Below are positions 9,094 to 43,853 of a stretch of DNA of 64,000 nucleotides, piece after piece. The stretch is from the NCBI GenBank assembly GCA_942490925.1, contig CALNYX010000017.1, positions 1,345,159-1,409,158 on the forward strand, written 5' to 3'. Source of the stretch: an uncultured Chlamydiaceae bacterium. Lineage in GTDB: Bacteria > Chlamydiota > Chlamydiia > Chlamydiales > JAAKFR01. Under the pieces are notes generated by a model, which saw only the letters and a list, made by a program, of their open reading frames with translations, searched no databases and had not been told where the DNA came from. The translations under genes were made by a program, and so were the position numbers. Each line of letters opens with the position of its first letter. The stretch's first letter is position 1.

Positions 9094-9275
9094 GAGCGTG
9101 CCACAAAGGTGGAAACCTTGTCAATAACCCTGTTAGTGGAGTGTCTAAAAACTCGATAGAACTGTTGATAAAATCAGAAGGTGTCAATAACTCACTATTT
9201 ATGTACGCTTGTTGAACAGACCGTGAACAACAAATAAACATAGAGGAATTGGCCGTGTTATCAACATTTCCACAC
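9094..9275. other. Candidate chromosomal replication origin / DnaA-box cluster
   Basis: Five 9-mers lie within 1 mismatch of TTWTNCACA: rc-TGTCAATAA at 9119-9127 and 9182-9190, rc-TGTTGATAA at 9163-9171, TTATCAACA at 9258-9266, and ATTTCCACA at 9266-9274. The cluster sits in the thyX-hemB divergent spacer. Confidence 0.35.
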
Positions 9276-10319
9276 GACTCGAAGAGGAAGAAACAAAGAA
9301 AAGATATATTCTCTTCTTCTTCAGGAAACCTTGAAGTGCTGACACGTCGTCCGCGTCGCAATCGAAAAACAGCGGCAATACGTGCCCTTGTACAAGAAAC
9401 ACGCCTCCACACCTCAGACCTCATCTATCCACTGTTTGTTAAAGAGGGGGCTTGTGAAGAGGTCTCAAGCCTACCTGGTGTTCGAAGACTCAACCTCACA
9501 GCTTTGCTCAAAGAAGTTGAAAGTGCTGTTTCTGCAGGAATTATTGCTATCGCTCTCTTTCCTATTGTCCCAGCTGGAAAAAAAGACATGCTTGGATCGG
9601 AGGCCTTTAACGAAAAAAACATTCTCTTCAAAGCTGTTCGCGAAATTAAAAAGGCCTTTCCTGAAATTTGCGTCATTACAGATGTCGCTTTAGATCCCTA
9701 TACCTCTCATGCGCACGACGGTCTTGTCGATGGATCTGGTGATGTTGAAAACGATAAGACTGTTGAAGCTCTTGCCCGCGCTGCTCTTTTGCAAGCAGAA
9801 GCAGGGGTAGATATGGTTGCCCCAAGTGACATGATGGATGGACGGGTACTTGCCATTAGAAGAGCGCTAGACACAAATGGATTTCAGCACGTTGCGATTC
9901 AGTCCTACACGGCCAAATATGTCTCATCTCTCTATGCACCGTTTAGAGATGCTGTCTCCTCTCGCCTACGCTGGGGGCATAAGCGAACTTATCAAATGAA
10001 TCCCGCCAATCAACGTGAAGCGCTTATTGAGGCAGCCCTCGATGAACAAGAGGGAGCAGATGTTATAATGGTAAAGCCAGCAGGCTTCTACTTAGATGTC
10101 ATTGCTAAAATTCGCGAAAACACAGAGCTCCCGGTCTCAGCCTTTCAGGTAAGCGGGGAATATGCCATGATCCAAGCGGCCTCCAAAAATGGATGGCTTG
10201 ACGAAACGGATGCGTTATACGAAAGCCTCTTGAGCATCAAGCGCGCGGGAGCTGATATGATCTTTACTTACGGCGCATCAAAAATTGCCTCTCTACTTAC
10301 CAGCGGCGCTCTTGATTGA
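9249..10319 (+). CDS. hemB: Porphobilinogen synthase (delta-aminolevulinate dehydratase)
   Basis: Contains RRPRRNRKTAAIRALVQE, VAPSDMMDGRV and IMVKPA blocks. The track start is TTG 9249. GTG 9336 (VLTRRPRRNR) gives a more typical N-terminus and would place the shared element in the 5' leader. Confidence 0.9.
   Translation: MAVLSTFPHDSKRKKQRKDIFSSSSGNLEVLTRRPRRNRKTAAIRALVQETRLHTSDLIYPLFVKEGACEEVSSLPGVRRLNLTALLKEVESAVSAGIIAIALFPIVPAGKKDMLGSEAFNEKNILFKAVREIKKAFPEICVITDVALDPYTSHAHDGLVDGSGDVENDKTVEALARAALLQAEAGVDMVAPSDMMDGRVLAIRRALDTNGFQHVAIQSYTAKYVSSLYAPFRDAVSSRLRWGHKRTYQMNPANQREALIEAALDEQEGADVIMVKPAGFYLDVIAKIRENTELPVSAFQVSGEYAMIQAASKNGWLDETDALYESLLSIKRAGADMIFTYGASKIASLLTSGALD
9255..9322 (+). 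repeat. Shared upstream/leader element, copy A (upstream of hemB)
   Basis: GTGTTATCAACATTTCCACAC (20/21 identical to 18485-18505) is followed by GAAGAGGAA, a purine tract and CTCTTCT. The purine and pyrimidine tracts are largely self-complementary. Confidence 0.6.
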
Positions 10320-12447
10320 TGGTCTCGTAAAGCGGGATTCCTGTCGATGTAAAGTAGCCCGCATCCCTTAGCCAAGCCGCTGAAGCTGATGAATAAACCT
10401 TCTTGCAGCTACGTCTAGAGAAAAAGTCAAACGGGATCTCCAAGAGAATTCCACGGTTGTAATAGGTTTCCCCATGCATCATGTCATGAGCATCTGTAAA
10501 GGTTATCCACCCACCGAAGCGCAAGCCGTTGTCAAAATAGCGCCAAAACTCAAGTCGAGCACCTTTGTCATATGCAAGAAACTGTCCAATGCTAGCCTTT
10601 GTAAAAAGCTGATACTGGGGAAGGTCAAGATAGAGGGTCAAAAAGTATTGCTGAAGCGTAGAGTAGCTTTGATAGGTTGGAGATCTTCCGTCTAGTCGCC
10701 TCAAAGAGTTCTGAAACCCAAAGCCGTGATAGCGCCGTTTTTTAACAACCGCCCCCTCAATTCCAATTGCGCAATAAGAGCGAGCGGGATACCAAAGAAT
10801 CTCGCCCGCAGCGCCCGCATAGTTAACCTGAAAGTAGCCAAGCGCAGCACGGCTGTAAAAACCGTGGCCATTATTAAAGCTCTTCTGCGCGTAAAGCCGG
10901 TTCCAGTTGTAAGAAGACTCAATAAAATAGCGCACCAAATCAGTCGCTACGTTAGGCAACTGAGAGGGATTATAAAAATCAAAGTCTCCCATTTCGTTTG
11001 AGAGGTTTGCCGCCGCTGTATACGTCCCGTGAAAATCATAGAAGATTTTTCCAGGCAGAAATCCCTGAGCAAAAGCATTGATCCCAAGGCTATACTTATA
11101 TTTCCCCGCGCGGCTTCCTAAAAAGGTTTGATAATTTGGAAAAACACCCGCTTTCCACAGGTCGTACCTTCTGTAGAACAGGGTTTTAGAACAGTTTGGG
11201 TTAGGTAGGGTTGGGTTTTGCCGAGGGGTTAAAAGCTCAAATTCATAGGGGCTGATGTGGTGATTGACATAACGGCGTAATAAACCCTTTGAATAGACAT
11301 ATTGCTGACAGGCGAGGCCATGTGATTCGATGATGACGACAACCTCATCGACATTTGAAGGGAGAAGCGCCGCGAGCAGGCTCTGTATGCGTTCGCGAAA
11401 AATGTGCTCATGAATGTAGCAACAGTTTGTCACGCTTAGCCACAATCGACTGGTGCACGACGCCTCCTCTAACCACCCCTGAATAATCTCAAGCCCCTGC
11501 TTTTGAAAGGCGTATTGCATCGACTGGATCATCACATTTTCTGGGCGGTAGCACCCAATGGGCTCATGATCTTTTGGACCGCAGTAAAGCGGTGGATCTT
11601 TTGTTTTTGGAAAAAAGCCCTCCGTCTTTCCCCAGTTGTAATTCAGTTCGCTACTGATGGTCAGCTCCTCGCCACGCACCTGGCCAATAGAGATTCCTAG
11701 AAGATCTCCATAGGTATATTTTGCGCCAAAGTTTACAGGAGAGCTCGTCGATCTTCCGTGCGGATTTGGCTCTCGCTCAGGATTCGTGTAGTCCACGGGG
11801 TCGTACTCAGCACAAAGCCCTAGTCCGCGCTTCCATTTGTTGTTCGACTCCCACCACGGGAACCATGAAATTCCACCAAAGACGCCACGAGAAGGGCCGA
11901 GCGTGTAGCGTCCCGCACCCCAGCCAAGAGATGTTTCAAGCCCAATTTGTCTCCACACTTGTGTGCCGACAAAAAAGTAGGTAGTAAACTTCTTTGACCC
12001 CATAAAATCTTCTATTCCAAAAGCAAAGCCTGGCAATTGGTAGAGGCTCTCTTCAGGGGTTAGCAGCCCTATTTTAAAGTTTGCCCCTCGATCTGCGTAG
12101 TCGCCAAACCCAAAAGGTGAAAGCCCCGAATCTTCTACACCGCGAAAAACGCGGTAATTAACCGAGAGTTCAACACGCGGGATCGGCTGAACGCGCGCGT
12201 TCCAGTTGAGGTAGGGTGGTACATCTGCAACACCAAGTCCGATCGAGCCCTCTGGGGTCATGCGCGCAGAGGGCGTTGTAAAATAACCAGTCGACAAAAT
12301 GTTGCTGTAGGTAACAGGAAAACGCTCTTCAAGCTTCTTATCAAAATGACGCGCGGTCTCTAAGTCGCGCATGAGCGCAGCAAAATCAGTTTGCGCATAC
12401 AAGACAAGGGGACACAGAATTAATAGGAATCTTAAAAAATAACGCAT
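10297..12447 (-). CDS. Putative outer-membrane beta-barrel protein
   Basis: 716 aa with a signal peptide (MRYFLRFLLILCPLVLYAQ), a Gly/Tyr/Phe/Trp-rich composition with alternating hydrophobicity, and a C-terminal aromatic residue (ERRW). I could not confidently assign a family. Confidence 0.55.
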   Translation of the reverse strand: MRYFLRFLLILCPLVLYAQTDFAALMRDLETARHFDKKLEERFPVTYSNILSTGYFTTPSARMTPEGSIGLGVADVPPYLNWNARVQPIPRVELSVNYRVFRGVEDSGLSPFGFGDYADRGANFKIGLLTPEESLYQLPGFAFGIEDFMGSKKFTTYFFVGTQVWRQIGLETSLGWGAGRYTLGPSRGVFGGISWFPWWESNNKWKRGLGLCAEYDPVDYTNPEREPNPHGRSTSSPVNFGAKYTYGDLLGISIGQVRGEELTISSELNYNWGKTEGFFPKTKDPPLYCGPKDHEPIGCYRPENVMIQSMQYAFQKQGLEIIQGWLEEASCTSRLWLSVTNCCYIHEHIFRERIQSLLAALLPSNVDEVVVIIESHGLACQQYVYSKGLLRRYVNHHISPYEFELLTPRQNPTLPNPNCSKTLFYRRYDLWKAGVFPNYQTFLGSRAGKYKYSLGINAFAQGFLPGKIFYDFHGTYTAAANLSNEMGDFDFYNPSQLPNVATDLVRYFIESSYNWNRLYAQKSFNNGHGFYSRAALGYFQVNYAGAAGEILWYPARSYCAIGIEGAVVKKRRYHGFGFQNSLRRLDGRSPTYQSYSTLQQYFLTLYLDLPQYQLFTKASIGQFLAYDKGARLEFWRYFDNGLRFGGWITFTDAHDMMHGETYYNRGILLEIPFDFFSRRSCKKVYSSASAAWLRDAGYFTSTGIPLYETINQERRW

Positions 12448-12469: not shown

Positions 12470-13807
12470 TCAGAAACCCATTTCTTTGGAATAACGATGA
12501 AGGCCTTGCTTCACAATCTCTACCATTTCAATCTTGGAGGGGCAGATGAATGTGGGGAGCGCGAAGTCTTCCGGGGCAACCTCTAAAAGCCCGAGCTGCT
12601 CGGCAAGCTCATAATCTTCGGCTAAAATTGCCTTCACGAGATGCATGGTTGGGATGCGCATGGGCATCACTTTGTTGTAAATTGCGCCATCAATAAAAGC
12701 ACGCTCTTCACCGTGCTGGTTTGTTGTAAAGCGGATCTTTTTGGATGTAAAGAGGCTTGACACATAAGCTCGTGTTGCCGAAAACTTGCCAAACCCAATG
12801 CGCAGAAAGTGAAACATTTGACGCTTGGTGTTCACAGGAATCACCGAAAAAGCTGTGTGGTAAAAGCCTAAAAACTCCCGCTCTTCAATCTTGCTTCCGG
12901 TTAGTGGGTCGCCGGAAATAAATGTAAGGAGCTGCTGAGTGAGGCGGCCAGCTGAAAGCCCTTCAAAAGAGTGGCCCGCCCGACCGCTGTAAAAGCCCGG
13001 CTTGCTAACGCCGTCTCCCCCTAGGCCAATAATGCGCTTGGTAAAGTAGCGCCCCTCTTTAACCATCATGCCAACTGTAATCACATCTACAACCGAAAGG
13101 GTCCATACGACCTCTTCGTGGTTTTGAATCGGTGAAATTTTGTGAATGTGAAGCGAAGCGCTCCCAATTGGGTTTGGGCCACGAGCTGTATGTTTCTCAA
13201 CTCCTTGGGCCGAGAGAAATGCATCGCAGTCACTTTTCTCGTTGTAGACAAGATGTGTTGGAGCAAGGGTTGCCAAGGCTTCTAGGCCCGCCTGAAAATG
13301 CGACTCGTTTCCAGATACTTGCATTTCTGCAGGAGGAACAAAGGGTTGTGATTCAATTGCTTTTACAAAGATCGCCCTCGGCTTTTTGTGTGGGGAGGCG
13401 ACAAGGTCAAATGGCCGCATCCGAATGTGAGGAAAAAGTCCACGCTCCATAAAAAAAGTGAGCAGGTCTTCTTTGGAGCTTCCTTTGTAGGGGGTCGCTG
13501 GTTCGCTCTGCTCGCTATCTGCAACATCGATAACAATGTCAAGAAGCCTTCTTTTAAGGCCGCGACGGATTTCGGCAACGGTGCCGCCGGCGGGTGAAAC
13601 AAAACGCTGCCCCGCAATTGTTTTGCTTTCAACAAGCGGTTGTCCAATGTTTACAGAATCGCCAACACGAACAAGCACTTTAAATCGAATGTCGTCAAAT
13701 GGGTCAAGGTTAAGCGCTAGCTGTTTGGGCTTGGGAAGGGGCTGGACATCCCCGCTTGGACTGTTGCCCATGGGAAGCGAAAGGCCTTTTTTTGTGCGAA
13801 TTCTCAT
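12470..13807 (-). CDS. nqrA: Na+-translocating NADH:quinone oxidoreductase subunit A
   Basis: 445 aa. The N-terminus MRIRTKKGLSLPMGNSPSG and the overall length are typical of NqrA. It neighbours hemB as I recall for Chlamydiaceae. Confidence 0.85.
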   Translation of the reverse strand: MRIRTKKGLSLPMGNSPSGDVQPLPKPKQLALNLDPFDDIRFKVLVRVGDSVNIGQPLVESKTIAGQRFVSPAGGTVAEIRRGLKRRLLDIVIDVADSEQSEPATPYKGSSKEDLLTFFMERGLFPHIRMRPFDLVASPHKKPRAIFVKAIESQPFVPPAEMQVSGNESHFQAGLEALATLAPTHLVYNEKSDCDAFLSAQGVEKHTARGPNPIGSASLHIHKISPIQNHEEVVWTLSVVDVITVGMMVKEGRYFTKRIIGLGGDGVSKPGFYSGRAGHSFEGLSAGRLTQQLLTFISGDPLTGSKIEEREFLGFYHTAFSVIPVNTKRQMFHFLRIGFGKFSATRAYVSSLFTSKKIRFTTNQHGEERAFIDGAIYNKVMPMRIPTMHLVKAILAEDYELAEQLGLLEVAPEDFALPTFICPSKIEMVEIVKQGLHRYSKEMGF

Positions 13808-18048: not shown

Positions 18049-18098
18049 TGGTACTCTCTATACAGAATTGTTTCAACTTGTTATCATTTCTACCCTCT

Positions 18099-18173
18099 CT
18101 GGGTGTAGCGCAGCTTGGCTAGCGCACTTGCATGGGGTGCAAGGGGTCGGAGGTTCGAATCCTCTCACTCAGA
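18099..18173 (+). tRNA. tRNA-Pro (anticodon GGG)
   Basis: Manual cloverleaf fold. Acceptor CTGGGTG/CACTCAG, D-arm GCGC-AGCTTGGCTA-GCGC, anticodon arm CTTGC-ATGGGGT-GCAAG (GGG with G37), variable loop GGGTC, and T-arm GGAGG-TTCGAAT-CCTCT. The discriminator is A and no CCA is encoded. Confidence 0.85.
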
Positions 18174-18190
18174 ATTTAATCTCCCTCATA

Positions 18191-18217: not shown

Positions 18218-18484
18218 GCCTGAAAAACGCGTACACCTAATCTAGTTACCGATCTTTCCTCCAAAACGCCACCCTCGCCCCCACTAACTCGGGCGGATCA
18301 GGCGAAAAGCAGCCAAAACGATCAGAAACTTGAGTTATTCAACAAAGCACTGGAAAACTTGTTTACAACTCTGTCAAATAAATGTCGGTAATTTTGTTGA
18401 TAGTGCTTGGCTGATGACAAGTCGGGAGTTGTCTTCTTTTTATTGACGCGTTATGATCACGCTTATCTCCTAGATGAAAATAAG

Positions 18485-18548
18485 GTGTTGTCAACATTTC
18501 CACACCCTTCTAGGAAGAGGAAAAAGAAGATAAATAACTCTTCTCTTT
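18485..18548 (+). repeat. Shared upstream/leader element, copy B (upstream of the hexapeptide-repeat gene)
   Basis: GTGTTGTCAACATTTCCACAC is followed by GGAAGAGGAAAAAGAAG and CTCTTCTCTTTT. It sits about 73 nt before ATG 18558, the same distance as copy A from the GTG 9336 start of hemB. Confidence 0.6.
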
Positions 18549-18557
18549 TAATAGACT

Positions 18558-19199
18558 ATGGACTTTTTCACACCTGATCTCTATTTCAATCTTTCCACCT
18601 TCAAACATGCTGACATTTTTGCCACAGCTGAGCCAGTCTGGAAGGTCTTGAGCAAAATACATGATTACTTAATGGAGCAAGCGTTAGGTAACATTGAAGG
18701 CTCAATCGAAACAGGGGCGCACCTTGTGAACCCTGAACTCATTTCAATCGGCAAAGGAACACGCGTTGAAGCGGGCGCTTATATTATCGGTCCTTGTGTG
18801 ATTGGCGAAAACTGCCAGATTCGCCACGGAGCGTACGTTCGCGGCGATGTGCTAGTTGGAGACCAATGTGTGATCGGTCATGCAACAGAGGCTAAGAACG
18901 CCATCTTTATGAACAAATCTCAAGCAGGGCACTTTGCCTACGTCGGAGATTCTGTTCTTGGCAACGGGGTAAACCTTGGCGCAGGAACTAAATGTGCAAA
19001 CCTAAGATTCGATCGGAAGCCTGTTTTGGTGGGCAAGGAGCGGACTGATAGCGGACTGAAAAAATTCGGCGCAATTTTTGCAGATGGTTCGCAAACAGGG
19101 TGTAATACAGTGACCAATCCAGGCACAATCATGGAAAAAAAGAGTTTTACTCTTGCTTGTGCAAGCGTTCAGGGAGTTATTCGTGCTCGAGAAATATAA
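18558..19199 (+). CDS. Left-handed beta-helix (hexapeptide-repeat) protein, GlmU C-terminal-like
   Basis: Imperfect [LIV]-G-x4 hexapeptide repeats run through residues about 60-190 (IGKGTRVEAGAYIIGPCVIGENCQIRHGAYVRGDVLVGDQCVIGH...). Confidence 0.6.
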   Translation: MDFFTPDLYFNLSTFKHADIFATAEPVWKVLSKIHDYLMEQALGNIEGSIETGAHLVNPELISIGKGTRVEAGAYIIGPCVIGENCQIRHGAYVRGDVLVGDQCVIGHATEAKNAIFMNKSQAGHFAYVGDSVLGNGVNLGAGTKCANLRFDRKPVLVGKERTDSGLKKFGAIFADGSQTGCNTVTNPGTIMEKKSFTLACASVQGVIRAREI

Positions 19200-33406: not shown

Positions 33407-34270
33407 TCAGATGGCTAGAGCATTCATTTTATTGAGTAATAGGCAGCGAAGGTGATTTTCAACACTCTGACTATCAGATCTTTTTGAAAATAACCTAGAG
33501 CCAAAGAGCCTTTTCATTCTTGAGAAGGCTGATTCAACAAGAGCTCTTCGGCTATATCCCGTCATTTTACTCCACAAAGATTTAGCAACTTGATCCCCAC
33601 CTAATGCTCGGATGATGCGCAATGCATCATCCCGATCTGGATCTTTGTTTCGTATTCGACCATTCTTGGGTGGAGGGATGAGCCCTCGAGCACCTCTTTT
33701 TGTAATAGCCTCTCTAGAAGCTCTTCCATCATATGCACCATCAGCCAAAACAGTATCTACAGAATCACTCACTTGGCTGAGGAGAACCTCAGTCATTTGA
33801 CCATCGTGTACATGCCCTTGAGTTGTTGTTTGAGCTACAATTTCCCCAGTATCCGTATCGACTGCTATATGGATTTTTACCCATCGCCGTCGTTTTGACT
33901 TTCCATGAATTTTAACCTTCCATTCTCCCTCCCCATAGACTTTAACTCCAGAAGCATCGATAGCAACAACAGAAGCATTTGACTGGCTTAAAGCAGGGAG
34001 CTTCAATTTTCTAGCTCTCTTGCATATCAATGAGTAAGAAGGAATGGAATATTTTGTAAATGACTCAGCAAAGCCTTGCAGAGCCCTATAAGCCAAATGG
34101 TAATGAATCTTGACCATCATAAGCATGGTAATCAAAGAATCGGAGAAAATCTGAGGTCTGCCACCAGTTTTAGACTTTTTGTTTTTGAACAACTTAGGGT
34201 CGATGAGAAAAGTAATGCTTCCCCTTTGAACTAGCTGTTTGTTATATTGCTTCCAATTGCGTTTACGCAT
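33407..34270 (-). CDS. DDE transposase (IS4/IS5 type)
   Basis: 287 aa with an N-terminal MRKRNWKQYNKQLVQRGS. Catalytic-region blocks are AIDASGVKV, LADGAYD and ESAFSRMKRLFG. Confidence 0.85.
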   Translation of the reverse strand: MRKRNWKQYNKQLVQRGSITFLIDPKLFKNKKSKTGGRPQIFSDSLITMLMMVKIHYHLAYRALQGFAESFTKYSIPSYSLICKRARKLKLPALSQSNASVVAIDASGVKVYGEGEWKVKIHGKSKRRRWVKIHIAVDTDTGEIVAQTTTQGHVHDGQMTEVLLSQVSDSVDTVLADGAYDGRASREAITKRGARGLIPPPKNGRIRNKDPDRDDALRIIRALGGDQVAKSLWSKMTGYSRRALVESAFSRMKRLFGSRLFSKRSDSQSVENHLRCLLLNKMNALAI

Positions 34271-34549: not shown

Positions 34550-36445
34550 ATGTTTAAAGTTAATTATTTAGATGATATAGTCCCTCAAGTTAATTGTTCA
34601 GATGATACAGTTCCTCTTCTCTGTCCAGATGCTCAAAGAAGTGCTCAAGCAGAGAGTGTAACTTCTGTTTACGAACGCCATGTTCTAAGAAAGCTCTCTG
34701 GACATCAGAAGCCAATTATCAGTTGCTTAAAGATTAATGATGAAAGGGTAATGACCAGTTCAGGCGATGGCACTGTGCGCGTGTGGGACCTGAAAGGTCA
34801 TGAACCACCTACTATTCTGCGCATCAAGCAGGGGTGCCTTTTGTGGGCGCAGCTTCATGATGGTAGAATCCTTTCTTCAACCCCTTGTAGAAAACAACTC
34901 CATTGGTGGTCAATTGAGCCTTTTGAGCTGCAAAAGAGTTATGGGACCTTCGGGGCAGTAAGCGCAGCGATTGAGTTGACTGTTTTCCCAAATAGCGTTG
35001 CCTATGGGACTGAAATGGGAAAAATTGTCATTTTAAATTACGAAAGAGGGTGTGCACTAAAGGTTATTGATCAGGCTCACAAAGGACCAATTAATTGCCT
35101 CTACCAGCTTAGTGGCCATCAACTTCTTTCATCTGCGCGTGATGATAAGACTATCCATTGGGACATGAATGATTTTACACAGCTTTCAAAAAAAGGGGGG
35201 GTAGAGACGTTGTGTTGCCTAGAGATAAATGGATGCATCGTAACAGGTGGGAGTGATGATACTTTGCGTAGCGGCGATACAGTTGTTCAAAGCAATGATC
35301 GAATCTATGCTCTTCGAAAAATTGATGAGCGTTATTTTGCCTCAGCCTCAAATACTTCTAGAGTCCAAGTGTGGGATTTCCAGACGCTTGAACAAGTTGC
35401 CTGTTTAAAAGGGCATATTGGTACAGTATGTGGAGTTTTTAGCGTGAGCAATGGCTCAATTGCTTCATTTGGGTATGATGATCCCTTACTATATGTTTGG
35501 TCAGCGGCAAGTCAAGTTGACCCTTCCGGCTATGTTCTCCCTGAAAGTGATGCCAAAATAGCAGCGGTCATCACAAGTGGAGAACTTTTTCAAAATTTCT
35601 CATATGTTCAGTTGCTAGCCGGGGATAATGTAAAGCAGATTGTCAGTATAAACGCCCATCGAATGATTTGCTGTCTCAAATCAGGAGGATTTTGCTTTCT
35701 AGAAAGTCAAGGGGTGAGCAAGGTTTATTTAGGTGATAACACGATTCTACTCTCACCTTGGGATGATCAGCAAGCCGTAATTGGATTGGATGGGAAAGTC
35801 CTGGCTATATGGAACTTTGCACAGAAGAAGGCAGTACATCGTACTGTAGGGCCTAAGGAGAAAAGCATCAGTTGTGTTTTGCCTGTCAGTTCTGAAAACA
35901 TTGCTTTTGGCTGCACAGATGGAAGTGTTTGGGTTTGGAATCTCAATTCACAGAACTGCAGATTACTGAAAAAAAATCAACACGCAGGACCTGTAAGAAA
36001 ATTAGTGCTGGGGCTAAATGGGGCATTTATGTCTGTTGGAGAAGATAAGACCCTCTATTGGAGTCTAGGAAATGATCCTAAGGAGAAAACGGAGTGTTAT
36101 GCACTCTGTTTACCAAGTGGGAATGTGATCTACCGCCCTGAAAAATCAATGCTACTTTTTACAGCTCTTGGCCAGGCTTTACATACATTTAGTTACAAGG
36201 GAGGCGCTGTCGTAAAAGCGATTCCGCTTGCTGGTAGTGATAAGCTTTTTGCAACAGCTTCAGAAGATGGAACGATCTGTATTTGGAATATTGAAAAGAG
36301 AAATCCCCTGGCAACGCTGAGAGGGAATAATACTTTCCTCTCAGACCTTGTTCAAAGGTCTGATGGTTGCCTGATCGCTTGTGGTAATAAGGGAGTCGAT
36401 AGATTCACTTTTGCTCTTCCAAAGAAGAAGAGCTGGTTCAAATAA
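34550..36445 (+). CDS. WD40/beta-propeller repeat protein (eukaryote-like)
   Basis: 631 aa with recurrent WD-type units (GHQKPIISCL...SSGDGTVRVWDL; HKGPINCLYQL...SSARDDKTIHWDM; GHIGTVCGVF...; ASEDGTICIWNI). Confidence 0.8.
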   Translation: MFKVNYLDDIVPQVNCSDDTVPLLCPDAQRSAQAESVTSVYERHVLRKLSGHQKPIISCLKINDERVMTSSGDGTVRVWDLKGHEPPTILRIKQGCLLWAQLHDGRILSSTPCRKQLHWWSIEPFELQKSYGTFGAVSAAIELTVFPNSVAYGTEMGKIVILNYERGCALKVIDQAHKGPINCLYQLSGHQLLSSARDDKTIHWDMNDFTQLSKKGGVETLCCLEINGCIVTGGSDDTLRSGDTVVQSNDRIYALRKIDERYFASASNTSRVQVWDFQTLEQVACLKGHIGTVCGVFSVSNGSIASFGYDDPLLYVWSAASQVDPSGYVLPESDAKIAAVITSGELFQNFSYVQLLAGDNVKQIVSINAHRMICCLKSGGFCFLESQGVSKVYLGDNTILLSPWDDQQAVIGLDGKVLAIWNFAQKKAVHRTVGPKEKSISCVLPVSSENIAFGCTDGSVWVWNLNSQNCRLLKKNQHAGPVRKLVLGLNGAFMSVGEDKTLYWSLGNDPKEKTECYALCLPSGNVIYRPEKSMLLFTALGQALHTFSYKGGAVVKAIPLAGSDKLFATASEDGTICIWNIEKRNPLATLRGNNTFLSDLVQRSDGCLIACGNKGVDRFTFALPKKKSWFK

Positions 36446-36514
36446 GCGCGATAAACTTTTCCTGCATACCAGGATCGACTCAAGACACATAAAATTTGAA
36501 ATACAGGGTTTGCT

Positions 36515-38365
36515 GTGCTACAGTCAATCCCTATGAATGAAAAGCTCAAACGGATTTATCGAGAAGCATACGATGTTGTTATCCCCGACCTTGACTACTA
36601 TCTAAGGCAAATCGATTGTCGCGACGGTTGCCCTGTAAACACTGACGGTCGTGGCTACATGCTGGCTATTCACTCTGGAAATCTGTTGGAGGGATACAAA
36701 ATTGCACGCGGTCCCAATCCCTTTGCTTCGATCTGCGGCATCATTTGTGGTGCTCCTTGTGAAATTGCATGCCGGCGCGATCGTGTCGATAAAACTCTGA
36801 CGATCCGCGCGCAGAAGCGCTATCTAGATGAGTGGTTTGGGCTCGATAAACAGGCGCATATCAAATCACTAGAATTTAGCTATGCGCGCGGCTCTACAAC
36901 ACCAAAGTCAAATGGTTTGAAAGTCGCATGTGTCGGCGCCGGGGTTGCGTCACTCACTTGTGCACATGACTTATTACGTTTGGGCTACGCTGTTGATGTT
37001 TATGAACAGATGCCGTTGCCAGGCGGCTTACTTGTCTACGGAGTGCCGAACTATCGGTTGAAAAATGAGGTCGCGATCAATGAGTGCGCAGCGATTGAGC
37101 ATTTGGGAGCCAGGATTCACTACAATACGAAAGTTGGGCGAGATATCACACTTAGTGAACTTGAAAAGCAATACGATACGATATTTATCGGTAATGGGCT
37201 GTGGAAATCTCGAGAGTTACCAATCCCAGATTTTGAAGCACCAGATATCATTCGTGGTGTCGAATATCTACGGCTACTTTGCGCAGAGCAGAAGTGGAAG
37301 ATAGGGGAACAAGTTATCGTTGTTGGCGGGGGAAACGTCGCATTTGATGTCGCCCGCTCTTCTGTCCGCAATGGAGCTAAACATGTGACGATGGTTTGCT
37401 TGGAGGCGCGCGATGAACAGACTGCTGATGAATTTGAAATCGAAGATGGGATGGAAGAGGGCGTTGCGATTGTCAACCGTGTCGGCCCTGTCTCTGTTGA
37501 GCGCGATGGGAGTGGAAAGATCATTGGGATCAAACTGCAACGAGTTCACTCGCTATTTGATGCAGATGGACGGTTTGCTCCCGACTTCATTGCCGAAACA
37601 GAGTTTGTCATCCCCTGTGATACGATAGCGCTTGCCATTGGCCAGGGGATGGACATGAGTCTGTTTGATGGGTGGGAGCGAAAAAACGAATTTGTCCTTG
37701 AGCGAGGTGTCATCAAAACAGAGAGAGAAACAGGGCGTACTTCAATCAAAGGGATTTATGCAGGCGGAGATGGGGCTTTTGGTCCAGCACTTTTCATCGA
37801 TGCTGTGCGTCACGGTCAGAACTCAGCAAGAGCAATTGATGCAGACTTGCGCGGCACACGTCCCTACCAGGAATTTGTTGGTGAGTTTACAACTGTGCCA
37901 CCGATGCGCGATAAGGCCTACTTGCGTACAAGTTGGTCTTTGCCAACAATGCAACCGGTTGAAAAACGGAAGCACTCTTTGCAACTGGTCGAAAACAACT
38001 ACACAGACGAAGAGGTGCATCAACAATCCAATCGCTGCCTTCAGTGTCACATCTCTCCAGTGTTTGATGGCTCTTTATGCATCAAGTGCAATGGGTGTGT
38101 CGATGTCTGTCCTACCAATTGTTTAAAGCAGGTTTACATTTCCCAGATGAATTTGGATTTGGGTGAAGGGAATATGCGTAAAGCTGTTGATAATCACTAT
38201 GGAGTTGATTCAGCGAGTATGAGTGATGAGGAGTTGAACCAGCTTGGCTCAGCGATGTTGAAGGATGAAGACCTTTGCATTCGGTGTGGGCTGTGCGCAG
38301 AAAAGTGTCCGACGCAAGCTGTGACGATGGATCTGATGAATTATTCGTTCAGATGGATCGGGTAA
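36515..38365 (+). CDS. GltD-like NAD(P)H-dependent FAD/Fe-S oxidoreductase with C-terminal 2x[4Fe-4S] ferredoxin domain
   Basis: N-terminal Cys cluster region (CRDGCPVNTD; ICGIICGAPCEIACRR), two dinucleotide folds (VACVGAGVASLTCA...GG; VIVVGGGNVAFDVA) and GIYAGGDGA. The C-terminal motifs are CIKCNGCVDVCPTNC and CIRCGLCAEKCPTQ. The start may be ATG 36533. Confidence 0.8.
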   Translation: MLQSIPMNEKLKRIYREAYDVVIPDLDYYLRQIDCRDGCPVNTDGRGYMLAIHSGNLLEGYKIARGPNPFASICGIICGAPCEIACRRDRVDKTLTIRAQKRYLDEWFGLDKQAHIKSLEFSYARGSTTPKSNGLKVACVGAGVASLTCAHDLLRLGYAVDVYEQMPLPGGLLVYGVPNYRLKNEVAINECAAIEHLGARIHYNTKVGRDITLSELEKQYDTIFIGNGLWKSRELPIPDFEAPDIIRGVEYLRLLCAEQKWKIGEQVIVVGGGNVAFDVARSSVRNGAKHVTMVCLEARDEQTADEFEIEDGMEEGVAIVNRVGPVSVERDGSGKIIGIKLQRVHSLFDADGRFAPDFIAETEFVIPCDTIALAIGQGMDMSLFDGWERKNEFVLERGVIKTERETGRTSIKGIYAGGDGAFGPALFIDAVRHGQNSARAIDADLRGTRPYQEFVGEFTTVPPMRDKAYLRTSWSLPTMQPVEKRKHSLQLVENNYTDEEVHQQSNRCLQCHISPVFDGSLCIKCNGCVDVCPTNCLKQVYISQMNLDLGEGNMRKAVDNHYGVDSASMSDEELNQLGSAMLKDEDLCIRCGLCAEKCPTQAVTMDLMNYSFRWIG

Positions 38366-38426: not shown

Positions 38427-38576
38427 TTGAATATCGAGATCTTTTGGTTTATCATATTTTCTTTGATCGGTGGCATCGCCGCACTTGTGGTCTTTCTCTA
38501 CTGTTTGAAGAAAGGACAGTTTGAGGATGTTGAAGAGACCAAGTACCAGGTGTTTCGCGATGATGAGGAGGATTAG
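38427..38576 (+). CDS. CcoS/FixS-like mini membrane protein (unannotated sORF)
   Basis: 49 aa from TTG 38427: NIEIFWFIIFSLIGGIAALVVFLYCLKKGQFEDVEETKYQVFRDDEED. One TM helix is followed by K-x-GQ-F/Y-[DE]-D and an acidic tail, as in CcoS. The stop TAG overlaps the Rieske GTG (TAGTG). Confidence 0.55.
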   Translation: MNIEIFWFIIFSLIGGIAALVVFLYCLKKGQFEDVEETKYQVFRDDEED

Positions 38577-39088
38577 TGCCAAAATATCGAAATAGTCTGC
38601 GCGTTGTTAAAGATACAAAAGAGCCAAAAGTTTCTAGACGTAAGTTTTTAGCGCTCATTGGTTGGGGCGCCGTAGCGGGTGTTGGTGGCATCTTGGCATC
38701 TGCAATGGGAGGCTTTCTCTATCCGAACGCTCTTAAGATTCCCCCAAGTGTTTTTTCCATTGGCAGGCCAGACGATGTTCTCTCTTCTGAAGGGCGCGTA
38801 TTTCTTCCCGGACAGAAAGTTTTTGTTGAAGTTGCTCGTGGTCGTGTGCGTTGTCTCACAGCGATTTGCACACACCTAGGTTGTACTGTGAATGGTGTTG
38901 AAACGGGTTTTAAATGTCCATGTCACGGTTCGACATACGATTTGGATGGAAAAAATACGGGCGGACCAGCTCCAAGCCCGCTTGTCTACTTCCAGGTCTA
39001 CAAAGGGGCCTCAGGAGAATTACTTGTTGATAAAAGTCGCGAAATCCATGTGCCAGCTGAATCATGGTACTCGCCAACTGCTGCGTGA
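38576..39088 (+). CDS. Rieske [2Fe-2S] protein with twin-arginine signal/anchor
   Basis: SRRKFLALIGWGAVAG (Tat motif plus TM) and the cluster boxes CTHLGC and CPCHGS. Confidence 0.9.
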   Translation: MPKYRNSLRVVKDTKEPKVSRRKFLALIGWGAVAGVGGILASAMGGFLYPNALKIPPSVFSIGRPDDVLSSEGRVFLPGQKVFVEVARGRVRCLTAICTHLGCTVNGVETGFKCPCHGSTYDLDGKNTGGPAPSPLVYFQVYKGASGELLVDKSREIHVPAESWYSPTAA

Positions 39089-39093
39089 AAAAG

Positions 39094-40422
39094 ATGGCCT
39101 CATTTAAAGGGAAACCAAAAAAAAGCTTTTGGCAAACACTCGAAACGCTTCCTGCTGATTTTGTGCGTTCGATTTTTCGTCATCGCTATCCAAGCAATGA
39201 TGTCGATCGCTCTGAGATCGTCTTCAAAAACTTTTTCCTCCACATCCATCCAGTCAAGTGTCACAAAACAGCTGTTGATCCTTTTCACACACTCGGACTT
39301 GGCGCCATAACGGCAAGTCTTTTCTTCTTGCTTGTCATCACAGGCGTTGTCTTGATGTTTTTCTACATTCCTGCTGTTGATCGCGCCTACACTATTCTTG
39401 TCGACTGGCTTGACACGACACCATTTGCGATGATGTGGCGCAACATTCATCGATGGAGCGCGCAGTTGATGGTGCTCTTTGTCTTCCTCCACATGAGTCG
39501 CGTCTTTTACATGGGGGCCTATAAGGGAGAGCGGAAATTCAATTGGATGATCGGTGTGATCTTGATGGTCATTACCCTTTTTCTCTCATTCACTGGCTAT
39601 CTTTTACCTTGGGATCAACTCGCTTTTTGGGCCATTACAGTCGGCTCTGAGATTGCGGGTTATGTTCCAGGGATTCCAGGGATGCAGTATAACATCAACA
39701 AACTGATGCTATTGGGGTCGACAACGGTGGGGCAAGATGCATTGATTCGCTTCTACGTTCTGCACGTGATGGTCCTACCCCTTCTTTTAGGAACCTTTTT
39801 AGGGGTCCATTTCTGGAGAATCCGAAAAGATGGAGGGTTAGCTCGTCCTCCAGATCGTTGGCGTCCAGATCCTTATAGAGTTGTGCAACGCTCTGACACC
39901 AAAGAGTCATTTGCCCCTGGTGTCCGTCGAACCTATGGCTTGATGGAGCTTGTCAGGGGTGCAAATCCCACAGTCGACAGAGGACCAGAGAATTACGTCT
40001 TTACCTGGCCAAACTTGCTCAGAGCAGAATTAATGGTCTTTTTGGGCACTGCTGCACTTGTTGTGCTCCTTTCGCTCTTTATTGATGCACCTCTAGAAGA
40101 GATCGCAAACCCTTCTAAACCAACAAATCCTGCAAAAGCACCCTGGTATTTCTTAGGGTTACAAGAGATGGTCTCTTACAATGCTTTTTGGGGAGGTGTG
40201 GGTATTCCGATGTTGATTATCATAGGGTTAGCGCTTATTCCTTATCTTGATCGGAATCCTCAAGGTGAAGGTGTTTGGTTCCACAAGAGCCGCTATTTCG
40301 GTATTTTTCTCTACACAACATTCATGACAATCCAAGGGCTTTTAGTCGTAGTTGGAGTCTTTTTCCGAGGCCCCAACTGGAGTTGGATTTGGCCATGGAC
40401 TGACAATTTTGCGAGGCATTAG
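39094..40422 (+). CDS. Cytochrome b (b6-like, with fused subunit-IV-like C-terminal part)
   Basis: The track ORF starts at 39064; ATG 39094 lies 6 nt after the Rieske stop. The helix B pair is IHRW...x13...LHMS and the helix D pair is LHVM...x14...VHFW (b6-type spacing). The APWYFLGLQE block is present. Confidence 0.9.
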   Translation: MASFKGKPKKSFWQTLETLPADFVRSIFRHRYPSNDVDRSEIVFKNFFLHIHPVKCHKTAVDPFHTLGLGAITASLFFLLVITGVVLMFFYIPAVDRAYTILVDWLDTTPFAMMWRNIHRWSAQLMVLFVFLHMSRVFYMGAYKGERKFNWMIGVILMVITLFLSFTGYLLPWDQLAFWAITVGSEIAGYVPGIPGMQYNINKLMLLGSTTVGQDALIRFYVLHVMVLPLLLGTFLGVHFWRIRKDGGLARPPDRWRPDPYRVVQRSDTKESFAPGVRRTYGLMELVRGANPTVDRGPENYVFTWPNLLRAELMVFLGTAALVVLLSLFIDAPLEEIANPSKPTNPAKAPWYFLGLQEMVSYNAFWGGVGIPMLIIIGLALIPYLDRNPQGEGVWFHKSRYFGIFLYTTFMTIQGLLVVVGVFFRGPNWSWIWPWTDNFARH

Positions 40423-43400
40423 TGCGCTATCAAACAGGTTATCAATACGCTTTGATCTTTTTTGCAGCGCTTGTCGTCTTTTCAATTGGTGTGTTTGTCT
40501 ACAAAGAGCTTTTTCCTGAGTATAAGACCTACCAGTATGCCTATAAAGAGCTTGAGGCACTACGTTCAAAGGTGACTGGAGAAAAACCGGCTCCATTTGC
40601 AACAGGGATTCGTCAGATCATGATTCCTGATCCTGACAATGGCCCTGAAGTGATTGATCGTTGCACGTCGTGTCACGTCGCAATGAACCTCCCTCATTTT
40701 TCTCCAAAGCGTCTGGCGCTTGATGTGAATGACAATCCCATTGTCGATGCTCAAGGTGATCCTGTACTGGAAGCTAACCCGAGTTACATCTGGACAGAGG
40801 TAGGCGAGAAGGCGAAGCATCTAGACACAAAAGAAATGCGCATGGCGCTGATGGCTCACCCGCTGATAGGAGCTGAAACACGACCTTTTGAATACCATTC
40901 AATGGAAGAGTATGGCTGTACAACTTGTCACAGTGGTAATGGACGTGCACTGGTTGCAAAACGTGCTCATGGACCTGTTTTCGACGAAACGTATGAACCG
41001 GCTGACCTGGGCAAGAAGCCGCAATTCTTAGAGATCGATGAGGAGCATGATCCACTTCTTGCGAGGATGTATAACAACAAGCCTGGTCATGATTTGGTCT
41101 TTCAGACAACGCCGCTTTTTGTTGGGCCGCTCATGACAGCAAAGTGTATGCAGTGTCACCAGTCGACTGCATCAGAGATGCAGGCAACGCTTGAGAAGAT
41201 TACAGATTTGGAAGCAAAGAAAAAAGAGCAGGTCGCACTTCTAGAAAAAGGGATTGAAGATGATAAATCAGCGCTAGCTGCATTGACGGATTTACAAGCG
41301 CGTTTGAAGAGTGAGGGATATGCCAAGACAATTGCTTGGTTGCAAGAGCAGCTGGGGGATTTTCGCCTCTCTTCGGAGCAACTCGATGCATACGCTGGGC
41401 AGCTGACATTCATGCAGACGAACAAAGAGAATCCAGATGAAGCGATTGTCAAACAGCTTGACATGCTTGGGAAGCATTCTATTTTGGCAAAAGAGCAGAT
41501 GTTGGCAGAAATTGAGCCAACGCTTGAAATGTTTGATCGAGCAAAGGCTCCTCTTTTTGTTGCAGGTCAAGATAAGCAAGTGGTAAGTAAGATGCGCTCA
41601 CAAGTTGACCGGTTAACGGTGAGCTACCAAAGAGGGCAAGAACTTTTTCTTTCTCAGGCCTGTTATGCTTGCCATCGCATTGCTGGCTTTTCACGCTCGA
41701 GTGTTGGTCCTGAGTTGACAACTGCAGGTTTGAGTTATCCCTGGTTTATCAAAGAGTCGATTGTATGGCCTCAGGCTGATTTGCCCTCTTCAACGATGCC
41801 GAATTTTCATCTCGATCATGAAGAGCTTGGCGATCTGATGGCATTTTTGATGGCACAAACAGGTAATCGCAAGGTGCAATCAGAAGTGGAACATCAAATC
41901 GCGCTCAACCAGTGGGAAGCTGGCGAGAAAATGGCGTGGGAAAAACCCGTTGCTCCGACGCAGATTCATGACTTGCGCGCTGGGATGATGATCTATGCAA
42001 CACAAGGGTGCGCCGCTTGTCACAAGTTGGAAGGGTTTGAATCTAATCTTGCAGTTGAAGATGAGCTCTGGTTCAAAAAGTTGTTTCCTGAACAGATTAC
42101 AGGATCAAAGTTAGCAGCAGTAGTTGAAGCACATGGCAAAGAGATCGAAGCGCAGTTTAAGCAGGTTCGCAAGAATGGGATCTTAGAAGAGATTGAGCTC
42201 GGCTATCCCGGATTGCTTATGGGGTACTACTCTAACTTCAAGTTTGCAGCGCGCAAAGGAAATGAAGACTTATTGAACAAGGTGTTGATGGGTTATATTC
42301 AAGCCTATGGACTTGGTCGTGACATTGCACCAGCGCTTAATTGGTCAGGAGTCTACCGAGATAATGCCTGGCTAATGGGACATTTTCACAATCCAAATGC
42401 TTATACTGCAAAATCGATCATGCCTGTCATGCCATTTGATGATACGAAATTCTACACACTCAACTACATGTTGCATAAGCTAGGGGAAAAAAATCGTGAT
42501 GCATTGCAACAAGTTTGGAAAAAAGATGGATTTGATCCGCCAGCAGCTTATACAGCGCTTTGCTCTTCCTGTCATGGCCCAAATCGCCAAGGAAATGGAC
42601 TTGTCTCTGAGTGGATCTACCCGATCCCTAAAAACCTGAGAGATCCTGTTTTCTTACGCAGTTTGACTAAAGAGCGTGCAATCGATTCGATCTGGCACGG
42701 CGTTTCTGGCACACCGATGCCGCCTTGGGGAGAGACTATCGAAGGGGAACCTGTACTCAACTATGCTCAGATTGTAAAGCTAGTCGACTGGTTGTATCAA
42801 GGATTGCCACCAATGCCGCGGCAAGCAAGTGAAGAAGAGAAGTGGAACTATACTCCAGAGATGGTTGTGCAAGAGATGGAAAAAGAGCGCGAGCTGTTGC
42901 AGCCCTCACACAAACCTGTCGATGTTGCAACCTACTTTGAAGTGCGCCCCAATCCGATTCCTGGCCCAGATAAAGAGCTCTATTTCATCAGAGAGCAGTT
43001 TTATACCCCTGAGAATTTGGAGGAGGGAAGAGAGTACTACGATGTGAACTGCGCAACTTGTCATGGAAAAGATGGTGGAGGAACAGGTTTACGCTCGACA
43101 TCCATGGTTGAAGCAAAACCTCGTATGCTCACCAATTTGCCTTGGATACGTTCACGCGATGATCTCCGTTTACTTCGCTCCATCAAATATGGTGTAGCTG
43201 GCACTGCGATGATCCCTTGGGGAGATCAGACAACCGCGGCTCAACGAATGGAACTGGTGATGTACATTCGAGAGCTGACACGTATGCAAATTCTGCGCGA
43301 TGACTTTGAAGAAGTGATCTATGATGTGTTCGATCGCCGAGAACTCGAACTGAATGAAGCACGCATTCCAAACTATGAAGCACTGGAGAAATTACAAACA

Positions 43401-43853
43401 GCCTATGATCAAGCTGTTTTAGAGGGTGCTCCGCTCACCATGAAAAAAGAGCTAGCTGAAAAGCGAGCAATTGATGCGCGCTACCTAGAAGAGATTGAGC
43501 TTCTTCAGCAAGAGCGTGAAATCTATAGAACACTCGGCTTGCAGCTCATTGGTAAGGAGCTTCCCTCGCCGATTATTGAGAGTTACTTTGAGTTTCTACA
43601 TGAGCGCAAAGGTGAGCCTCTTGCAGTGATTGGCTATCTTGATCAAGTGATCGCGGATTATCAGAAGCAGCTTGATGATCTCACCCAAGGACTCAGTGAT
43701 ATGGAAATTGTCCAGAATAAGCGTGTACAAAAAGTGATTACAGAGCAACGTGGCTACATCAACTTGCGCACGAAGCTAATGATGGGGGTTTCAAACGGTA
43801 AAAGACTGCAGGAAAAACAGCGAGACCTCTATAATGCCCTCCATGATGCATGA
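40422..43853 (+). CDS. Membrane-anchored heptahaem cytochrome c with CcoP-like dihaem module
   Basis: 1143 aa with an N-terminal TM helix. The seven CxxCH motifs start at residues 81, 166, 242, 413, 530, 714 and 877. Domains 6-7 (CSSCHGPNRQGNG...GTPMPPWG; CATCHGKDGGGTG...GTAMIPWG) look like FixP/CcoP. The GTG start overlaps the cyt b stop (TAGTG). Confidence 0.85.
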   Translation: MRYQTGYQYALIFFAALVVFSIGVFVYKELFPEYKTYQYAYKELEALRSKVTGEKPAPFATGIRQIMIPDPDNGPEVIDRCTSCHVAMNLPHFSPKRLALDVNDNPIVDAQGDPVLEANPSYIWTEVGEKAKHLDTKEMRMALMAHPLIGAETRPFEYHSMEEYGCTTCHSGNGRALVAKRAHGPVFDETYEPADLGKKPQFLEIDEEHDPLLARMYNNKPGHDLVFQTTPLFVGPLMTAKCMQCHQSTASEMQATLEKITDLEAKKKEQVALLEKGIEDDKSALAALTDLQARLKSEGYAKTIAWLQEQLGDFRLSSEQLDAYAGQLTFMQTNKENPDEAIVKQLDMLGKHSILAKEQMLAEIEPTLEMFDRAKAPLFVAGQDKQVVSKMRSQVDRLTVSYQRGQELFLSQACYACHRIAGFSRSSVGPELTTAGLSYPWFIKESIVWPQADLPSSTMPNFHLDHEELGDLMAFLMAQTGNRKVQSEVEHQIALNQWEAGEKMAWEKPVAPTQIHDLRAGMMIYATQGCAACHKLEGFESNLAVEDELWFKKLFPEQITGSKLAAVVEAHGKEIEAQFKQVRKNGILEEIELGYPGLLMGYYSNFKFAARKGNEDLLNKVLMGYIQAYGLGRDIAPALNWSGVYRDNAWLMGHFHNPNAYTAKSIMPVMPFDDTKFYTLNYMLHKLGEKNRDALQQVWKKDGFDPPAAYTALCSSCHGPNRQGNGLVSEWIYPIPKNLRDPVFLRSLTKERAIDSIWHGVSGTPMPPWGETIEGEPVLNYAQIVKLVDWLYQGLPPMPRQASEEEKWNYTPEMVVQEMEKERELLQPSHKPVDVATYFEVRPNPIPGPDKELYFIREQFYTPENLEEGREYYDVNCATCHGKDGGGTGLRSTSMVEAKPRMLTNLPWIRSRDDLRLLRSIKYGVAGTAMIPWGDQTTAAQRMELVMYIRELTRMQILRDDFEEVIYDVFDRRELELNEARIPNYEALEKLQTAYDQAVLEGAPLTMKKELAEKRAIDARYLEEIELLQQEREIYRTLGLQLIGKELPSPIIESYFEFLHERKGEPLAVIGYLDQVIADYQKQLDDLTQGLSDMEIVQNKRVQKVITEQRGYINLRTKLMMGVSNGKRLQEKQRDLYNALHDA

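Follow-up and report, generated by a model that had tools for sequence, protein, structure and literature searches.

Paired DnaA-box arrays, one of them in the thyX-hemB spacer, as a candidate replication origin region in an uncultured chlamydia

The DNA analyzed here, referred to as the window, is a 64,000-nucleotide stretch deposited as that of an uncultured Chlamydiaceae bacterium (contig CALNYX010000017.1, positions 1,345,159 to 1,409,158), numbered from its first letter. The spacer between the window genes thyX and hemB carries a cluster of candidate boxes for the initiator protein DnaA, designated array 1 (about 9108-9322), and a paralogous cluster, array 2, lies 9 kb away. The left flank of array 1 is formed by thyX (7444-9060, minus strand, ATG at 9060), which encodes a long chlamydial FAD-dependent thymidylate synthase. 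On the other side, array 1 lies directly upstream of hemB (9336-10319, plus strand), identified as the porphobilinogen synthase gene by its match to NCBIfam NF006762 (E = 4e-140). Transcription of both genes runs outward from array 1, and among the 46 of the 48 listed window open reading frames (ORFs) that were scanned (those of at least 150 aa), no member of the DnaA family was found, as in the chlamydial pattern. The window has a GC content of 44.7%, its ThyX is 100% identical to a protein on a 1.80-Mb NCBI contig, and the closest relatives of this ThyX, with up to 79% identity, come from metagenome-assembled genomes labelled Chlamydiales. The organism is an uncultured environmental chlamydia, and the label Chlamydiaceae goes beyond what these data show.

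The first-pass annotation of this DNA had flagged the spacer as a candidate oriC on the basis of five 9-mers with at most one mismatch to TTWTNCACA. All five are present. Three lie on the minus strand, namely, TTATTGACA at 9119-9127, TTATCAACA at 9163-9171, and a second TTATTGACA at 9182-9190. The other two lie on the plus strand, where TTATCAACA at 9258-9266 and ATTTCCACA at 9266-9274 overlap to form a terminal twin box that is nearly invariant across 11 lineages. A sixth candidate within the same mismatch limit had been overlooked, namely, the minus-strand TTTTAGACA at 9142-9150. The inverted TTATCAACA/TGTTGATAA pair described at the same time is genuine and sits within a 13-nt inverted repeat (arms 9159-9171 and 9258-9270, 92% complementary). 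Weaker sites are also present: the outermost reverse box, b1 (GTTTCCACC, 9108-9116, minus strand), has two mismatches to TTTTCCACA and is aligned with TGTGGAAAA in relatives, and the degenerate plus-strand boxes TTATGTACG (9199-9207) and TGTTGAACA (9210-9218) are aligned with good boxes in relatives.

Beyond the twin box, toward hemB, the spacer contains further elements in a fixed order. A trio-like run of purine triplets, CGA AGA GGA AGA (9280-9291, plus strand), begins 5 nt past the twin box, in a conserved register. The least stable 30-mer of the spacer (9288-9318) begins 14 bp past the twin box, ranks in the lowest 0.9% of the window, and is a candidate DNA-unwinding element (DUE). A plus-strand pyrimidine run, TTCTCTTCTTCTTC (9309-9322), repeats the purine run imperfectly in inverted orientation and is less conserved. 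Folding of the purine and pyrimidine runs into a hairpin or cruciform was considered and rejected, as the runs fold as they do in shuffled sequences (z = -0.3 to -1.1), the 3' arm is poorly conserved, and compensatory changes are absent. An RNA element was likewise rejected; the region has no Rfam match, and the single chance match to a microRNA scored 23 bits against a gathering threshold of 80.

The start of hemB had been placed at 9249 or 9256 but is most likely the GTG at 9336. In the ORF starting at 9249, the NCBIfam hemB profile is matched only from residue 31 onward, and the called hemB starts of relatives lie downstream of the twin-box motif. With hemB probably starting at 9336, the two plus-strand boxes would therefore be noncoding. 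The purine run falls in different reading frames across lineages; the motif is conserved at the DNA level. Within hemB, the G run at 9446-9450 has five G residues in the window and four in L081, a Logan contig of the same organism. The four-G run frameshifts hemB, which is called there as 271 aa, and reflects either an assembly error or homopolymer length variation.

The whole window contains 194 sites within one mismatch of TTWTNCACA (0.55 per 182 bp), and the other 21 intergenic regions contain 12 matches in 3858 bp. The 275-bp thyX-hemB spacer contains 6 boxes, compared with 0.86 expected from the other intergenic DNA (Poisson P = 2.6e-4). A comparison with the intergenic background had been suggested as a check on the candidate, and within the window the density of the spacer is indeed the higher of the two. 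Array 1 is also the densest box cluster of the window. When 64-kb sequences were simulated 200 times with a first-order Markov model and the maximum per 182 bp was scored, this maximum was at least 6 in 1 simulation and at least 5 in 17. The five boxes listed originally are therefore marginal on a window-wide scale, whereas six are significant. A weight matrix built from the relatives alone ranked array 1 first, with 5 sites of at least 10 bits compared with at most 2 elsewhere in the window.

A box-dense spot at about 54.4 kb lies inside or at the start of a mannose-1-phosphate guanylyltransferase gene (54318-55670). It was rejected as a further array, as it has no module and scores far below both arrays. 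In a separate count, TTATCAACA with at most one mismatch occurred 44 times in the window compared with 19.4 times expected from shuffled sequences (0 of 100 shuffles reached 44), and this excess reaches well past the two arrays.

The relatives compared comprised 6 thyX loci found by exact protein look-up and 80 from metagenomes. hemB lies beside thyX, in divergent orientation, in 34 lineages including the window. Eleven of these, again with the window, form class A (ThyX 69 to 79% identical; spacers of 275 to 451 bp), and the 23 more distant lineages form class B (spacers of 68 to 215 bp). All 11 class A spacers contain an array, with 60 boxes in total compared with 11.4 expected (P about 4e-24). 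No array was found in the 23 class B spacers, which contain 14 boxes compared with 7.3 expected. Since class B keeps the thyX-hemB adjacency without an array, synteny alone is no mark of an origin. The thyX-hemB-nqrA synteny proposed earlier omits a YjbH-family gene (10297-12447, minus strand) that separates hemB from nqrA (12470-13807, minus strand). Class B spacers (for example, those of L115, L117, and L151) have in common a motif containing AATTGACA, with no box array, and in L117 this motif forms a plain hemB promoter, TTGACA-N18-GATAAT. In the relative L087, hemB (2641-3632) is split into ORFs of 107 and 223 aa, possibly as a pseudogene or through a frameshift, and the upstream array is intact.

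When the class A spacers were aligned, they were found to have diverged except for the thyX-proximal motif, about 10 box positions, and a terminal module. With few exceptions, the boxes on the thyX side are reverse (TGTGGAAAA, TGTTGATAA, TGTTCATAA, and similar) and those on the hemB side are forward (TTTTCGACA, TATCAACA, and TTATCAACA). Distances between neighbors of the same orientation peak at 8, 11, and 21 to 23 bp, and TTTCCACA-type boxes stand at both edges of the array. The derived box consensus is TTWTNNACA, with A most often at position 6 and TTATCAACA as its best form. The terminal module consists, in order, of the twin box (TTATcAACA/yTTCCACA), a 5-bp spacer, four purine triplets (consensus TGA AGA AGA AGA), an AT-rich stretch of 13 to 22 bp that is conserved in composition and not in sequence, and a pyrimidine run, with hemB following 15 to 70 nt further on. 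Judged by its sequence and conservation, the thyX-hemB cluster is a genuine, conserved array of predicted DnaA boxes of the oriC type adjoining hemB.

The original proposal of a candidate oriC holds for the type, the conservation, and the position of the cluster at hemB, but this array is one of two, and the other, 9 kb away, had not been seen. The weight matrix from relatives placed its next-best cluster at 18369-18568. Array 2 (18336-18504, plus strand; with its module, to 18553) is a paralogue of array 1. Its reverse boxes start at 18360, 18372, 18383, and 18395, and its forward boxes start at 18440, 18451, 18488, and 18496; the last two are the plus-strand twin box TTGTCAACA (18488-18496) and ATTTCCACA (18496-18504). 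A plus-strand triplet run, GGA AGA GGA (18513-18521), follows 8 nt past the twin box, and the AT-rich 30-mer at 18523-18553 is the least stable of its spacer. The left neighbor of array 2 is a tRNA-Pro(GGG) gene (18098-18174, plus strand) that occupies the same position in L172 and L173. Directly downstream lies a hexapeptide-repeat (LbH, GlmU/LpxA-like) transferase gene (18558-19199, plus strand), referred to below as the LbH gene. The DNA between the arrays contains hemB, the YjbH-family gene, nqrA, greA, rdgB, ung, and the tRNA-Pro gene.

Pairwise alignment of 9100-9345 with 18320-18565 gave 74% identical columns. The two arrays share GTGTTrTCAACATTTCCACAC, the purine run, AT-rich DNA, and CTCTTCT, and a profile of the eleven array-1 modules matches 18487-18549 (E = 6e-8). 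Array 2 with its module was found upstream of the LbH orthologue in six of the six relatives examined, three of which belong to class A and carry their two arrays on the same contigs, about 10 to 13 kb apart. Among the long contigs of relatives, JAJACK010000001.1 has its arrays near 510.5 and 520.7 kb, JBAJGS010004116.1 has them near 1,285.9 and 1,296.9 kb, and array 2 of ERZ25039522 contig_6795 is near 386 kb. In another of the six, the more distant relative L174 (1807-3000), two arrays with modules lie 0.9 kb apart, and this 1.2-kb stretch contains no ORF longer than 62 aa and has no Rfam match. On these sequence comparisons, array 2 is the more widely conserved of the two arrays. Pairwise identity among arrays is 60 to 69%, which is near background and leaves the duplication undatable. 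In 18 of 19 modules, the triplets keep one register relative to the twin box (offset 5 or 8). The spacer is mostly 5 nt long in the modules of array 1 and mostly 8 nt long in those of array 2, so that its length changes by multiples of three although the DNA is noncoding. As only one or two independent events underlie it, this fixed register is suggestive and falls short of proof.

Base-composition asymmetry was measured locally, over the 64 kb of the window. From position 1, cumulative G-C declines until 12,141, where it reaches its minimum between arrays 1 and 2, and then rises. The leftmost 9.2 kb have a skew of -0.029, which is below that of every 9.2-kb segment to the right (mean, +0.040; standard deviation, 0.027). 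Local skew passes from negative to positive within about 3 kb, and to the right, 68% of the coding DNA is on the plus strand. On this local scale, the window contains an origin-type turn in skew that is bracketed by both arrays. A skew step at the spacer, taken over 10 kb on either side, was positive in 5 of 5 class A loci and in 0 of 5 class B loci, an effect of about 0.03 that is within noise.

Part of array 1 coincides with a probable promoter. The motif CTTGAa-N17/18-(TRTGG)CAnnCT recurs upstream of thyX in most of the fetched loci, in class A, in class B, and in loci lacking hemB, and this conserved thyX-proximal motif probably represents the thyX promoter. In the window, the putative promoter (9095-9124, minus strand) has a -35 element, TTGACA, at 9119-9124 and a -10 element, CACGCT, at 9095-9100, with an 18-nt spacer that ends in TGTGG (9101-9105). 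It overlaps boxes b1 and b2, and the TTGACA of the box at 9119-9127 doubles as the -35 element. This promoter could account for b1 and b2; the remaining boxes have no -10 partners. DnaA bound at the thyX-proximal boxes, over the -35 element and the promoter spacer, would couple thymidylate synthase expression to initiator occupancy. Such an overlap points to a direct coupling of initiation with thymidylate supply.

We consider it probable, at roughly 0.6, that array 1 in the thyX-hemB spacer and its paralogue, array 2, together mark the chromosomal replication origin region. In the mechanism that we propose, DnaA would bind about ten 9-mers of the lineage type TTWTNNACA, of which TTATCAACA is the best. 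The boxes would act as two opposed half-arrays with 11/22-bp phasing, reverse on the thyX side and forward on the hemB side. The hemB-proximal twin box, TTATCAACA/TTTCCACA, would anchor a DnaA filament that runs over the in-register triplets, which read 3'-TCT-5' (C-centered) on the strand that canonical origins use. The filament would melt the adjoining AT-rich stretch of about 30 bp, the helicase would load there, and forks would depart toward thyX and hemB. Array 2, which has the same layout, may act as a second origin or work together with array 1. For the array flagged originally, the possible roles are those of one origin out of two, of one part of a bipartite origin, and of an accessory DnaA cluster. 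A more specific proposal, which we offer tentatively and think unlikely to hold in full, is that of a duplicated origin with paralogous arrays 1 to 13 kb apart, in which the twin boxes guide DnaA onto C-centered 3'-TCT-5' triplets in place of the near-universal A-centered DnaA-trios. These triplets would be a naturally occurring parallel to the A-to-C substitutions that B. subtilis tolerates (PMC10721633). Such a duplication could be related to the two DnaA paralogues reported for chlamydial genomes.

Several observations weigh against the two arrays as the origin region. Canonical A-centered DnaA-trios are absent beside the twin box. The local skew minimum, at a distance of 2.9 kb from array 1, is broad, with a flat course between about 10 and 17 kb, and the 10-kb flanks of the relatives are uninformative for skew. 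Each array abuts the start of a downstream gene and must therefore overlap or contain the promoter of that gene, which fits a regulatory role, and the left edge of array 1 overlaps the putative thyX promoter. Array 1 is limited to a subclade and is absent from 23 of the 34 thyX-hemB spacers. Finally, L088/L172 has array 2 without array 1, which indicates that array 1 is dispensable in some lineages.

The observations on distribution also bear on whether array 2 alone is the functional oriC, with array 1 as a clade-specific duplicate, an accessory cluster that titrates or recycles DnaA or controls thyX and hemB. The presence of array 2 in all six relatives, L088/L172 among them, would be expected under this explanation, as would the absence of array 1 from most thyX-hemB spacers and its overlap with the thyX promoter. 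The AT-rich flank of array 2 is at least as unstable as that of array 1, ranking in the lowest 0.25% of the window, and the steep rise in skew starts at about 18 kb. However, negative skew is found already on the left side of array 1, and the skew between the arrays is about zero. Array 1 also has the better boxes (six with at most one mismatch, including two exact copies of TTATCAACA, compared with one in array 2), and its full module is strongly conserved in 11 lineages, which would be needless for a pure titration site. Weighing these points, we consider it unlikely that array 2 is the sole origin.

A regulatory role for both arrays, as DnaA-dependent or DnaA-modulated promoter cassettes of hemB and the LbH gene with the origin located elsewhere, appears distinctly improbable. 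Each module does end close to a co-oriented gene, 10 to 70 nt upstream of its start codon. A terminator-like hairpin follows the tRNA-Pro gene, so that the LbH promoter probably lies within 18220-18557, and TAnnnT hexamers were read by eye in the AT-rich segment of most modules. However, no sigma-70-type promoter on the hemB strand of the array 1 spacer passed the scan, and the putative -10 hexamers are not conserved in position and are missing in the window and in L082. Unlike fixed promoter spacing, the gap between the twin box and the triplets varies by exactly 3 nt and the length of the AT-rich segment varies between 13 and 22 nt. The roughly ten phased sites, in opposed half-arrays, also far outnumber those of known operators. 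In L174, no gene is annotated directly downstream of the first array, where the nearest ORF has only 30 aa, class B hemB has the ordinary promoter described above with no array, and the arrays, 9 kb apart, bracket the skew minimum. A sigma-54 reading of GTGCCACAA/TGGCAC was also tried and rejected, as relatives lack the -12 GC and, in the window, its spacing is too short by one base.

We think it very improbable that the 9-mers are sites of a transcription factor other than DnaA or elements of divergent promoters that resemble DnaA boxes; although the two TTATTGACA boxes contain the -35 consensus TTGACA, one of them being the thyX -35 element, and position 6 usually departs from the C of the Escherichia coli consensus, the second TTGACA box (9182-9190) has no -10 partner, the consensus TTWTNNACA with its best form TTATCAACA equals the DoriC motif for environmental chlamydiae, the boxes are phased at 11 bp in both orientations and are bounded on either side by TTTCCACA-type boxes, and the region has neither an Rfam family nor a hairpin more stable than those of shuffled sequence. 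Chance is opposed by the DoriC motif match and the box statistics.

The paired-array origin region, if correct, turns the idea of a hemB-adjacent oriC into a base-resolved map across lineages, comprising about ten phased boxes, a twin box, a triplet run, and a 30-bp AT-rich stretch, and each mapped element is open to mutation or footprinting. If C-centered triplets are functional, the sequence definition of the bacterial unwinding system would become wider. If both arrays fire, the locus would offer a compact, naturally occurring example of dual origins.

Other genes were also identified in the window. To the left of thyX lies a topA-SWIB fusion (4911-7427, plus strand), and beyond nqrA lie a greA fusion, rdgB, and ung. 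A DDE transposase (insertion sequence) gene at 33407-34270 (minus strand) stands beside two large WD40-repeat protein genes (34550-38365), and GC skew is locally negative in the region just upstream, at 27 to 33 kb. A respiratory cluster at 38576-46487 contains cytochrome b-like and cbb3-type oxidase subunit I-like genes, whose matches are below NCBIfam cutoffs, and a 1143-aa ORF with no NCBIfam match at an E value of 1e-25 or lower.

To our knowledge, chlamydial origins are known from computer prediction only. The first-pass annotation had pointed to published predictions of an oriC next to hemB and to a genome numbered from that gene, and both statements are borne out by the literature. Ori-Finder and Z-curve analyses place the oriC of Chlamydiae next to hemB rather than dnaA (PMC4009838), and Chlamydia pecorum genomes were renumbered to begin upstream of hemB, at the oriC region (PMC3932018). 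Ori-Finder work proposes TTTTCCACA as the chlamydial box (PMC2275245). DoriC gives TTATCAACA as the box of Parachlamydia and Simkania, TTTTCAACA as that of Chlamydophila, and [TA]TTTCCACA as that of C. trachomatis and C. muridarum, and several predicted sites lie at genome coordinates 6 to 151 (PMC8287927, supplement). A full-text literature search for TTATCAACA returned nothing relevant. Array 1 resembles the DoriC chlamydial origins in being intergenic and directly upstream of hemB, in its TTATCAACA and TTTCCACA motifs, in lying away from dnaA, and in its proximity to a switch in base-composition asymmetry, here a local one. Its two exact copies of TTATCAACA and one ATTTCCACA are of the DoriC chlamydial motif type, and the minus-strand TTATCAACA at 9163-9171 is an exact copy of the Parachlamydia/Simkania motif. 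It differs in coming from an uncultured environmental lineage and in the absence of the array from many thyX-hemB relatives. A second, equally oriC-like array 9 kb away is unmentioned in the cited papers, DoriC itself being outside this comparison.

The layout of array 1 is also similar to that of E. coli oriC. In both, opposed sets of boxes, reverse and then forward (the left and right DnaA-oligomerization regions), are spaced by about 11 bp, the outermost box faces AT-rich DNA one to three helical turns away, and the gene flanking the DUE, here hemB, is transcribed away. A recent preprint describes as structural criteria an outward-directed gene, AT-rich DNA, an outermost box facing it, and a contiguous box array (10.1101/2025.08.05.668638), all of which are found in array 1. 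Unlike E. coli oriC, array 1 has no 13-mer repeats, its terminal box is an overlapping twin, and its layout is symmetric, so that either flank could in principle be the DUE. No IHF consensus site was found in array 1 or array 2.

The terminal modules can be compared with the basal unwinding system (BUS) of Bacillus subtilis and other bacteria (PMC8287927, PMC10721633). Both have a co-oriented pair of boxes of which the upstream box is the better match, a spacer of 5 to 8 bp (13 to 16 bp from the upstream box), three or four in-register triplets, and AT-rich DNA next to them. The BUS rule for the box pair allows at most two and at most four mismatches, and the array 1 pair has 0 (TTATCAACA) and 1 (ATTTCCACA) relative to TTTTCCACA. 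AT-rich DNA lies distal to the triplets in both arrays, as the BUS rule specifies. Canonical trios are A-centered on whichever strand carries the box as TGTGNAWAA (PMC8287927, in which the entry for E. coli confirms this convention). In contrast, the corresponding strand of array 1 reads 3'-GCT TCT CCT TCT-5', which is C-centered and differs from 3'-GAT-5', and the A-centered GAA reading is found on the opposite strand. Under the BUS rule (.A.){3,}, with at least three trios within 16 bp, neither the hemB-side nor the LbH-side module gives a match. A formal BUS match on the thyX side (box 9108-9116, 11-nt spacer, five trios) was rejected, as it falls within the thyX leader and lacks conservation. 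In B. subtilis, A-to-C substitutions in the trios remain functional (PMC10721633).

Two box clusters about 1 to 13 kb apart at a skew minimum, which is a local one in the window, also recall the predicted oriC1/oriC2 pairs of Pseudomonas and Halomonadaceae (10.1101/2025.08.05.668638) and the dnaA-flanking clusters of B. subtilis and Helicobacter pylori. In the bipartite origins of B. subtilis and H. pylori, the clusters are separated by dnaA, whereas six protein genes and a tRNA-Pro gene separate arrays 1 and 2. The arrays described here differ from these dual and bipartite origins in that each has an AT-rich flank and in that they are direct-repeat paralogues with a common fine structure. As clusters near an origin that might control initiator availability or neighboring genes, they recall datA, DARS1, and DARS2 of E. 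coli and the DnaA-box clusters (DBCs) of B. subtilis. Unlike the present arrays, those clusters have fewer phased sites and no conserved module of twin box, triplets, and AT-rich DNA. A hemB-adjacent oriC is already known for chlamydiae; what differs here is the pairing of the arrays and the noncanonical triplets held in register with the twin box.

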